Source of the DNA: a virus
Length of the DNA: 32,900 nt
IMG/VR virus record: IMGVR_UViG_3300014203_000008
Coordinates: 1-32,900 of that record
Strand: one strand, 5' to 3'
Shown here: positions 1 to 593 of the stretch, piece by piece
Position numbering within the stretch: the first letter of the stretch is position 1
How the letters are laid out: each line of letters begins with the position of its first letter
Translations under genes and position numbers: made by a program
The notes under the pieces: generated by a model
What the model saw: only the letters and a program-made list of their open reading frames with translations
Database searches by the model: none
Told to the model about the DNA's origin: nothing

Positions 1-123
1 AATTCAATAAATGTTTTTACCGTCATAGTATCTTTGTCAACATTAATTTCATGGTCCTTTGCAAAAGACTTTCTTCCCATTTCACACGAGCCTGTTAATA
101 TATGATGCCACGAGAAGAACTCG
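1..123. repeat. Terminal direct repeat, copy A (identical to 32778..32900). Marks circular closure or terminal redundancy, giving a 32,777 bp unit genome.
   Basis: Direct comparison: aattcaataaatgtttttaccgtcatag...cacgagaagaactcg is present at both window ends. Confidence 0.95.
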
Positions 124-593
124 CTACATGGATACTCTTTTTCTAAATCGTTAAAGTGGTTGATAAATTTAGAAATTCGTTCTTCTTCTGGCATATTATC
201 AAATAATTTTTCTGTCATTGATTCCATTGCTTTTCTTAATGTTTCGCCATGTGCAAATTTATTATTTTGTTTTACAACAAAGCAAGGTTCTTGTGTTAAA
301 TCTTTGTTTAAAATAAAACCACTTGCAACATTATATTTTATATTCGTAATCACAGTTTGAACATTATCAATCATTACAATTTTTTTACTATTTATTGATT
401 TTAAGCCATAGCCATAGACAGAGCCAGAGCCATAGCCAGGGCCAGAGCCAGAGCCAGAGCCAGAGCCAGAGCCAGAGCCATCGCCATAGCCATAGCCATA
501 GCCATAGACAGAGCCAGAGCCAGAGCCATAGCCAGAGCCAGAGCCATAGCCAGAGCCAGAGCCAACTTTCAAAAATTCTTCTATTTTATCCAT
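1..593 (-). CDS. N-terminal 197 codons of a 217-aa protein that wraps across the genome junction and ends at 32717. It has a 10-aa N-terminus, a 53-aa Gly/Ser/Tyr low-complexity tract, and a globular C-terminal domain of unknown function.
   Basis: ATG at 593..591 overlaps the stop of the upstream gene. The frame is open to base 1 and, through the 123-bp overlap, continues to a TGA at 32719..32717. Manual translation: MDKIEEFLKV-GSGSGYGSGSGYGSGSGSVYGYGYGYGDGSGSGSGSGSGSGPGYGSGSVYGYG-LKSINSKKIVMIDNV...FFSWHHILTGSCEMGRKSFAKDHEINVDKDTMTVKTFIELTENSYNGHVIKNLKKELNL. It is absent from the ORF track because it runs off the window edge. Confidence 0.75.
   Translation of the reverse strand, partial: MDKIEEFLKVGSGSGYGSGSGYGSGSGSVYGYGYGYGDGSGSGSGSGSGSGPGYGSGSVYGYGLKSINSKKIVMIDNVQTVITNIKYNVASGFILNKDLTQEPCFVVKQNNKFAHGETLRKAMESMTEKLFDNMPEEERISKFINHFNDLEKEYPCSEFFSWHHILTGSCEMGRKSFAKDHEINVDKDTMTVKTFIE
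405..563. repeat. Imperfect hexanucleotide tandem repeat (GCCAGA/GCCATA)n, about 26 units, inside the CDS above.
   Basis: gccatagccatagacagagccagagccatagccagggccagagcc... On the minus strand this reads GGC-TCT / GGC-TAT (Gly-Ser / Gly-Tyr). Confidence 0.95.

Follow-up and report, generated by a model that had tools for sequence, protein, structure and literature searches.

Whether a short tandem repeat lying inside a phage gene is part of a working protein, and what would maintain it there, is the question raised by the edge of IMG/VR virus record IMGVR_UViG_3300014203_000008, whose positions 1 to 32,900 (32,900 nucleotides) are the window analysed here. The gene concerned encodes a long alternation of glycine with a second residue (Gly-X) and lies directly downstream of a gene for a small protein of the DUF6948 family. 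The reading put forward, held with a probability of roughly 0.6, is that the gene encodes a genuine three-part phage protein, whose unstable Gly-X tract would be the constant partner of the Sm-fold DUF6948 protein, with the products of the two genes cooperating.

The window belongs to a tailed phage (terminase, minor capsid protein and endolysin genes were found), has all its genes on the minus strand and derives from a genome of 34% GC. Its two ends duplicate each other over 123 bp, positions 1-123 being an exact copy of 32778-32900, so that the genome forms a circle of 32,777 bp, and the Gly-X gene is split at the window edge because the assembler opened the circle at that position. Read on the minus strand from 593 to 1 and then from 32777 to 32717, the open reading frame (ORF) comprises 654 nt, and translation across the junction gives exactly the 217-aa sequence that the first-pass annotation had proposed for a protein crossing the window edge. 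It consists of a 10-aa leader, 53 residues of (Gly-X)n and a conserved domain of 154 aa, laid out as follows.

1..593, minus strand: 5' part of the Gly-X gene, its first 593 nt (codons 1-197 plus 2 nt), translated across the circular junction
32717..32777, minus strand: 3' part of the Gly-X gene, its last 61 nt, with the TGA stop at 32717-32719
32778..32900, no strand: assembly overlap, the second exact copy of 1-123, adding no extra sequence
564..593, minus strand: leader MDKIEEFLKV, 10 aa, a predicted short helix with the family motif ME.I..FL.V
405..563, minus strand: (Gly-X)26.5 tract, residues 11-63, encoded by (GGC-TCT / GGC-TAT)n and predicted to be disordered
1..404, minus strand: most of the alpha/beta C-terminal domain, residues 64-197, with the remainder at 32720-32777
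601..607, minus strand: Shine-Dalgarno-like GAGGGGG, 7 nt 5' of the ATG of the Gly-X gene, read from the sequence

The start of the gene overlaps the stop of the DUF6948 gene by 13 nt, and its TGA stop overlaps the ATG of the downstream HTH_17 gene (ATGA). Judged by the GAGGGGG site and by these overlaps with both neighbours, the frame is a genuine expressed phage gene. Other open frames across the repeat (+395..727 and -401..565) were dismissed as shadows of the repeat.

The composition first described for the tract, 53 residues of Gly, Ser and Tyr with two Val, one Asp and one Pro, is that of residues 11-63 (G25, S15, Y9, V2, D1, P1), and every odd position is Gly, or Val through a single GGC to GTC change, both Val codons being GTC. 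The earlier estimate of about 26 hexanucleotide units agrees with Tandem Repeats Finder, which places the array at 404-564 with period 6, 26.8 copies, 89% matches and a score of 224; it is the strongest tandem array of the window by far, the runner-up scoring 85. All 25 Gly codons of the tract are GGC and all its Ser codons are TCT, each of which accounts for only 13% of the codons for its amino acid genome-wide. The tract is a true DNA microsatellite. In the AlphaFold2 (AF2) model of the protein, built on a 91-sequence alignment, residues 13-60 have a predicted local distance difference test score (pLDDT) below 50 between confident flanks, which amounts to predicted disorder with no beta structure in the tract. 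A collagen-like (Gly-X-Y)n repeat would need Gly at every third residue and a 9-nt period and was rejected, the observed period being 6 nt, or two residues. The likeness to the eukaryotic protein FUS suggested by the first-pass annotation holds for composition, with Gly, Ser and Tyr prevailing and seven [G/S]Y[G/S] triplets within the 53 residues, and fails for the aperiodic arrangement of Tyr that is typical of FUS, since the phage tract is a period-6 tandem array with Gly or Val in strict alternation at every second position. Formally, the tract has more in common with silk-fibroin or (GS)n-type repeats than with the aperiodic domain of FUS.

The upstream gene is the most regular feature of the neighbourhood.

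581..877, minus strand: DUF6948 gene, 98 aa, directly upstream of the Gly-X gene, with a Pfam match and an Sm/LSm-like fold

Its Pfam match reaches 98.4 bits against a cut-off of 27 and covers profile positions 2-85 of 85. The AF2 model (pLDDT 91) has five strands, and in a Foldseek search of the PDB the top matches were all Sm/LSm chains (E 4e-4 to 4e-3, probability 1.0), among them the archaeal SmAP 1i8f and Lsm1-7 4m75, with a target-normalised TM-score of up to 0.75. At the level of sequence models, no Pfam LSM match was obtained at E <= 0.001 and none in NCBIfam. The gene immediately upstream of the Gly-X gene is DUF6948 in 65 of 65 IMG/VR loci with upstream sequence and in 56 of 57 loci from genome collections, that is, in 121 of the 122 loci with enough flank. 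With 4,312 proteins in the search database the DUF6948 family is larger than the Gly-X family and is better conserved (70-80% identity); its motif RRxWYWDG has an invariant RR..W, with the surrounding W, Y and D nearly invariant. As a side observation, the Gly-X tract and the DUF6948 protein match adjacent positions (86-149 and 154-230) of PHROG 18306, which has 242 positions, so that some phages may have a fused protein combining a Gly-rich tract with DUF6948; the top 120 DUF6948 homologues include no such fusion.

In the GenBank phage collection DUF6948 is present also in phages that lack the family of the C-terminal domain, and in every such phage examined the ORF that overlaps or follows the DUF6948 stop consists of a short leader and a Gly-X tract only.

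Pectobacterium phage Sabo: domain-less Gly-X ORF after DUF6948, 73 aa, MSKLIKPEKYGDGSGYGSGYG...
Ralstonia phage NK-7: domain-less Gly-X ORF after DUF6948, annotated as 'fibroin heavy chain-like protein'
Iodobacter phage phiPLPE (EU876853.1), 46,048-46,281 (locus L168, 1173-1406): unannotated ORF MSRLVNNKN-(Gly-X)n between gp84 (DUF6948) and gp83
Vibrio phage IKEMa6-1: domain-less Gly-X ORF after DUF6948
Chlorobiaceae phage CV-1-33: domain-less Gly-X ORF after DUF6948
Podoviridae sp. ct8d5349: domain-less Gly-X ORF after DUF6948

A second scan of IMG/VR with the DUF6948 type of these phages found a domain-less Gly-X ORF following in 73 of 80 loci; five of the seven remaining loci have less than 150 nt of downstream sequence, and the only well-flanked loci without a Gly-X ORF are L242 and L243 (~1340-2090). 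Overall, the Gly-X gene adjoins DUF6948 in 194 of 197 sampled loci with enough flank. Because Gly-X proteins without the domain follow DUF6948, the tract is a conserved partner and not a mere linker; of the 'length-variable linker' that had been proposed, the variable length stands, and a role as linker alone does not. As judged from gene order and translated sequence, the conserved unit is an Sm-like protein with a (Gly-X)n polypeptide, the 154-aa domain being a lineage-specific addition, and a Gly-[Ser/Tyr/Asp/Asn] chain follows DUF6948 in phages of Bacillota, Bacteroidota, Proteobacteria and Chlorobi. In L242 and L243 themselves, DUF6948 is fused in frame to a Rad52/Sak-like C-terminal segment (...FGLGLYIYAGEDLPE...), which may point to a connection with the single-strand annealing module.

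The two partners may also share a structural element. The canonical Sm fold includes an N-terminal helix. The long-form DUF6948 proteins of non-gut phages start with an amphipathic helix (e.g. MNINDLTIGQAKELAAMF, or MMNISEIENFLKTLEN in L248), the canonical helix is absent from the 98-aa form of gut phages, and the gut Gly-X partner opens with a helix, ME.I.EFL.V, that closely resembles the amphipathic one; in the window protein it is modelled at residues 3-8, with a mean pLDDT of 84 over residues 1-10. It is a speculation that in gut phages the Gly-X leader might supply the Sm N-terminal helix in trans.

The three-part architecture is itself common. A search with the C-terminal 154 aa retrieved 705 homologues from a collection of 5.8 billion sequences, the best with ~60% identity and none with a Pfam domain, as well as 722 representatives of 50%-identity clusters. 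The homologue check called for by the first-pass annotation came out in favour of the tract: almost all family members have a leader of 10-20 aa (ME.I..FL.V), a Gly-X tract and the domain. In the first 121 homologues the median tract length is 41 aa and the longest tract has 97 aa, and the tract is short (9-20 aa) in many members; X is Y at 31%, S at 30%, D at 18% and N at 6% of positions, Gln is essentially absent, Ala occupies 25 of about 2,450 positions, and the tract is acidic in most relatives. Carriers in genome collections are mainly metagenome-assembled genomes (MAGs) of gut and rumen Clostridia (Oscillospiraceae, Acutalibacteraceae, Faecousia, Ruminococcus, Lachnospiraceae), and also Bacteroidales, including the isolate genome of Prevotella sp. 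oral taxon 376 F0043.

The globular domain assumed from the start is borne out both by these 705 homologues and by the AF2 model, in which residues 64-217 have a pLDDT above 90 and form five strands followed by six helices. In the alignments, D76, T80, FAHG113-116, K129, WH162-163, LTGSC166-170, G173-R174 and F177 are invariant or nearly so, and Cys170 immediately precedes a predicted helix (171-180). These conserved Asp, His, Lys and Cys residues are compatible with a catalytic or metal site, which we infer from conservation. No relative of the domain was met in Pfam, with the single sequence or with 37 family members, in NCBIfam or PADLOC, or in the PDB by sequence or profile, and the window protein gave only low-complexity matches or matches with E > 0.01 in PHROGs. 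The structural comparison suggested by the first-pass annotation was likewise negative, Foldseek giving no PDB match for the domain at E <= 0.001; in BFVD it matched only uncharacterised viral proteins, including one mis-annotated as 'Lamprin' and one 'E3 ligase' fused to leucine-rich repeats. In Riemerella phage vB_RanS_CRP6 (OQ789245.1, locus L001), a protein encoded at 3809-4417 is annotated as 'ribonuclease inhibitor' and has N-terminal leucine-rich repeats together with a divergent copy of the C-terminal domain (28% identity); its label stems from the leucine-rich repeats and not from the common domain.

The in-frame expansion and contraction in 6-nt steps anticipated by the first-pass annotation is seen directly between relatives. 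Within ten 90%-identity clusters the last 150 residues are 96-100% identical, and the length of leader and tract varies several-fold. The 123 loci in which DUF6948 and the domain occur together yield 173 pairs whose flanks are at least 97% identical on both sides, and the spacer length differs in 161 of these 173 pairs, which are not independent observations; all 161 differences are multiples of 6 nt and range from 6 to 258 nt. In four larger lineages 8 of 11, 10 of 11, 9 of 11 and 4 of 4 lengths are distinct, and each of three smaller lineages has a constant length. Going by spacer lengths only, the length-invariant lineages appear to be those loci with mixed Gly codons, and a constant length in such lineages is expected if repeat purity drives slippage. 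Most tracts use one Gly codon throughout, usually GGC, with GGT in locus L015 and GGA in locus L048. Since the unit is a multiple of 3, the reading frame is always kept and no on/off phase variation results. On these alignments the tract changes in length, and its units are rearranged, at a much higher rate than the adjoining DNA diverges, probably through replication slippage and unequal recombination, and that a microsatellite is tolerated would follow if its exact length matters little.

The same instability affects what can be said of the window itself. The European Nucleotide Archive (ENA) contig ERZ27249489:k141_312518 (33,054 bp; locus L162) is the same phage, assembled as one full circle plus 276 nt, and matches the window at 100% of 4,338 nt downstream of the tract and at 99.88% of 3,437 nt on the upstream side. 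It starts exactly at the first Gly codon with a 53-codon tract that differs from the window at 23 of 159 nt without any indel and leads into an identical C-terminal domain. At its other end (3285-3590), the leader and the first 135 nt are identical to the window, a different tract end follows, and the contig continues into an unrelated allele of the C-terminal domain (KIKQYNNNKVYIIDNVD...; KIKQYNNNKVYIIDNVDTIILKLKGDVAKGKIINRDL...), owing either to a coexisting phage variant that departs from the window only past the tract or to recombination inside it. The variation seen consists of shuffled TCT/TAT/GAT units and indels and is not limited to A sites. The tract is a branch point, reflecting either coexisting recombining variants or assembler failure, and as the second assembly disagrees within it, unit order and number in the window are insecure. 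This disagreement, together with the many contigs that start or end inside the tract (12/80, 13/80 and 17/80 in three locus sets), two sequences with DUF6948 96% identical (L163 and L164; a Sedimentibacter MAG and a Logan assembly) that end within a few codons of the tract beginning, and a run of undetermined residues within the tract ORF of one scaffold (L129), might suggest that the repeat is an assembly artefact absent from the phage. Such an explanation is barely credible, since the tract recurs in hundreds of independent assemblies, in the Prevotella isolate and in sequenced cultured phages, always in frame between a conserved leader and domain, and the doubt is limited to exact length and unit order in the window. 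Thus, of the artefact suspected earlier, the repeat itself is real and only its exact sequence in the window is assembly-ambiguous. As a separate observation, an Anaerovoracaceae MAG contig (JBGUKZ010000024.1, L160) begins inside a Gly-X tract, and the 3.5 kb of it that were compared lack nucleotide similarity to the window.

Fast length change is also what a neutral, mutationally inflated spacer would show, with all function residing in the C-terminal domain. Near-identical phages span a ~ten-fold range of lengths with no apparent optimum, AF2 shows no structure in the tract, some homologues are tract-free, and the uniform GGC/TCT codons of the window speak for a recent amplification at the DNA level. 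We nevertheless regard a neutral spacer as unlikely, first because domain-less Gly-X proteins are conserved beside DUF6948 in many phage lineages, and further because of the choice of residues. In a codon set of 77 distinct stand-alone tracts with 1,663 units, X is S at 29%, Y at 27%, D at 21% and N at 15% of positions, so that these four residues make up 92%, though F, C, P, A, T or H would be within easy reach of a single-base change. Ser is encoded there by 296 TCN and 186 AGY codons and is thus maintained through two unconnected codon families, and tracts with mixed Gly codons retain the Gly-X pattern. The use of both Ser codon families, the restricted X and the Gly-X pattern kept despite mixed Gly codons speak for selection at the level of the peptide. 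In addition, passive linkers do not typically have Tyr at about 30% of such positions.

A role of the nucleic acid itself has to be weighed against this selection. At the DNA level, the repeat could act as a hotspot for recombination, as an attachment site or as the boundary of a module, with the peptide incidental. Comeau et al. 2012 (PMC3391216) listed in their Table 3 a non-coding GC-rich repeat of phiPLPE, (KMGCCG)35 at 46,046-46,255 (210 bp), and raised the speculation of an att site. In the phage of the window, the tract is the place at which two genomes that are nearly identical elsewhere pass into unrelated C-domain alleles, GGC accounts for 87-100% of Gly units in the window and in loci L002-L251, whose hosts differ widely in GC content, and the next gene of the window encodes an excisionase-family helix-turn-helix (HTH) protein. 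A DNA-level explanation is nonetheless improbable in view of the two Ser codon families, the restricted X and the conserved leader with an in-frame start codon; throughout the gut family the tract shares its frame with a conserved domain without exception, the window proteins that were scanned include no integrase or reverse transcriptase, and conservation of the downstream HTH gene does not extend to the related loci searched. By comparison of coordinates and reading frame, the phiPLPE (KMGCCG)35 repeat is the DNA that codes for the tract in the unannotated ORF immediately following gp84. An attachment site was rejected for the window, where no integrase was found, as was a diversity-generating retroelement, given the wrong mutation pattern and no reverse transcriptase in the scans, where the template repeat was not searched for explicitly.

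Sm and Hfq proteins bind short repeated RNA motifs. At the RNA level, (GGCUNU)n in the operon messenger might serve the Sm-like DUF6948 protein as a site of binding or regulation: the repeat is invariably found just 3' of the DUF6948 gene, and the tract RNA self-pairs in many registers, with a minimum free energy of -72.7 kcal/mol and a z-score of -2.67. A regulatory RNA site is very improbable all the same, because the centroid is open, with no single defined fold, because the protein-level constraints on Ser codons and X apply here as well, and because RNA binding by DUF6948 is putative and its window member matches no Pfam LSM model at E <= 0.001.

Several points weigh against a three-part protein with a cooperating Sm-fold partner. 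A few distant members (e.g. P0203 and P0213) join the leader straight to the domain without any tract, and in the Riemerella phage and some BFVD entries leucine-rich repeats replace the tract, so that the domain can function without it. As no relative of known function was detected for the C-terminal domain by sequence or fold, its role is a guess. The near-exclusive use of GGC, even in a genome of 34% GC, is unexplained by selection on the protein and leaves room for a role of DNA or RNA; nor does such selection alone account for X codons that end in a pyrimidine in ~95% of units, and the non-independence of the locus pairs noted above reduces the weight of the length comparison.

If the proposed cooperation holds, the DUF6948 and Gly-X products would act together. 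The Sm-like protein would probably be an oligomeric ring, and the Gly-X chain a flexible multivalent tail of Tyr 'stickers' that binds the ring or assembles around it, with the chain in gut phages tethering the C-terminal effector domain to the complex. Eukaryotic Sm/LSm proteins occur in ribonucleoprotein granules, often with low-complexity tails. An extension of this scheme, in which the Sm-fold protein and the prion-like Gly-X chain assemble during infection into a scaffold of ribonucleoprotein type or a condensate, to which gut phages add a Cys/His/Asp effector domain, and which would be a bacterial-virus counterpart of granule components that combine LSm proteins with low-complexity domains, is offered tentatively, as a conceivable but not a probable outcome. 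That the Tyr-rich tract, as in FUS, itself drives condensates or fibrils, possibly with RNA bound by the Sm-like partner, is also unlikely. Its G/S/Y(/D/N) composition with the [G/S]Y[G/S] triplets, its predicted disorder and the Sm/LSm fold of the partner, whose RRxWYWDG motif could engage Tyr residues, agree with FUS-like behaviour, but the strict dipeptide alternation, the shortness of the tract in many members and its acidic nature in most relatives disfavour self-association, and its length is unconstrained. Condensation thresholds usually depend on valency.

Around these two genes, signals in the window suggest how they may be transcribed.

919..947, minus strand: promoter-like site TTTACA, 17-nt spacer, TG-TATAGT, upstream of the DUF6948 gene; 10/12 in a consensus scan, a consensus match only
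985..1009, minus strand: terminator-like hairpin GAGCGTCAGAAATGGCGTTC with a T-run, which closes the preceding exonuclease gene; a consensus match only
32580..32720, minus strand: HTH_17/excisionase-family DNA-binding protein, 46 aa (Pfam HTH_17, TIGR01764), translationally coupled to the Gly-X gene
32509..32548, minus strand: second hairpin copy (32524-32548), then a hairpin and T-run (32509-32524), ending the three-gene unit; from the scan and the sequence

The DUF6948, Gly-X and HTH_17 genes look like a self-contained three-gene transcription unit. The 25-nt hairpin GAGCGTCAGAAATGGCGTTCTTTTT occurs twice on the minus strand (985-1009 and 32524-32548) and brackets these genes, and a strong promoter-like site (TTGACA, 17-nt spacer, TG-TATTAT) follows the second hairpin copy at 32478-32450. 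The Gly-X gene is located at the end of a recombination and replication block, with proteins including a single-stranded DNA-binding protein (SSB), RusA, a NinB/Orf-like protein, a Rad52/Erf-like annealing protein and an SbcD-like exonuclease. Two further, adjacent tandem arrays, at 31825-31859 (9 nt x 3.9 copies) and 31865-31925 (11 nt x 5.5 copies; TGTTCACTTGT), lie inside a 228-aa gene at 31563-32249 whose family matches are weak; these iteron-like arrays at 31825-31925 may mark a replication origin.

The first-pass annotation knew of no described phage protein built in this way, and indeed no published study was found; the architecture is not unique, being present at hundreds to thousands of phage and prophage loci, several of them in cultured phages. 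Apart from the repeat table of phiPLPE (PMC3391216), the full-text literature search returned no study of DUF6948 or of phage Gly-X proteins, and the DUF6948 and Gly-X module was not found described in the literature searched. Gly-X proteins go under the labels hypothetical, 'Lamprin' or 'fibroin heavy chain-like', or carry no annotation. Should the pairing be functional, it would constitute a widespread uncharacterised phage module of a prion-like low-complexity polypeptide with an Sm-fold protein, in phages of at least four bacterial phyla, and such low-complexity biology would be testable in Pectobacterium Ymer-like phages, Ralstonia NK-7 and phiPLPE. In practical terms, the tract breaks metagenomic assemblies and makes graph branches, its genes are mis-annotated (also as 'ribonuclease inhibitor') or missed, and its length is a natural strain-level marker for gut phages.

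Among known systems, the low-complexity domains of FUS and hnRNPA1-A2 resemble the phage tract in Gly/Ser/Tyr content (with Asn/Asp in relatives), [G/S]Y[G/S] triplets, predicted disorder and an associate with an RNA-binding (Sm-like) fold. The phage tract differs in its strict two-residue period, in being encoded by a microsatellite, in lacking Gln, in being much shorter and usually net acidic, and the phage protein has no RRM or RGG module. The silk fibroin heavy chain (GAGAGS/GAGAGY) shares the alternating Gly-X with Ser or Tyr as X and a repetitive coding DNA prone to length change; yet Ala, the main X of silk, is nearly absent from the phage tract, in which Asp and Asn are common, and the phage tract has tens rather than thousands of residues, belongs to a cytoplasmic early protein and has no predicted beta-sheet. 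The phiPLPE repeat (KMGCCG)35 is the same element, inside the ORF after gp84, a DUF6948 protein, but it was described as DNA only, unlinked to gp84 or to other phages, and is accompanied by no C-terminal domain. With contingency loci and in-frame repeats of surface proteins the tract has in common a short tandem repeat within a gene and a very high rate of length change between relatives, whereas its 6-nt unit keeps the frame, provides no on/off switch and encodes an intracellular product instead of a surface antigen.

Tailed members of the Sm/LSm/Hfq family are a further parallel. The RG tails of SmB/D1/D3, the low-complexity C-terminal region of Lsm4 and the Gly-rich C-terminus of Acinetobacter Hfq all belong to this class, which likewise combines a small Sm-fold barrel with a Gly-rich, disordered repeat of variable length; in the phages, by contrast, the repeat is on a separate, translationally coupled polypeptide, and DUF6948 matches no Sm/LSm sequence model. 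In Epstein-Barr virus, the Gly-Ala repeat of EBNA1 impedes proteasomal processing and its own translation. EBNA1 is, like the phage protein, a viral protein with a long Gly-X-type repeat whose length varies between isolates, the two differing in virus, host and composition, with Ala in EBNA1 and Ser, Tyr and Asp in the phage tract.

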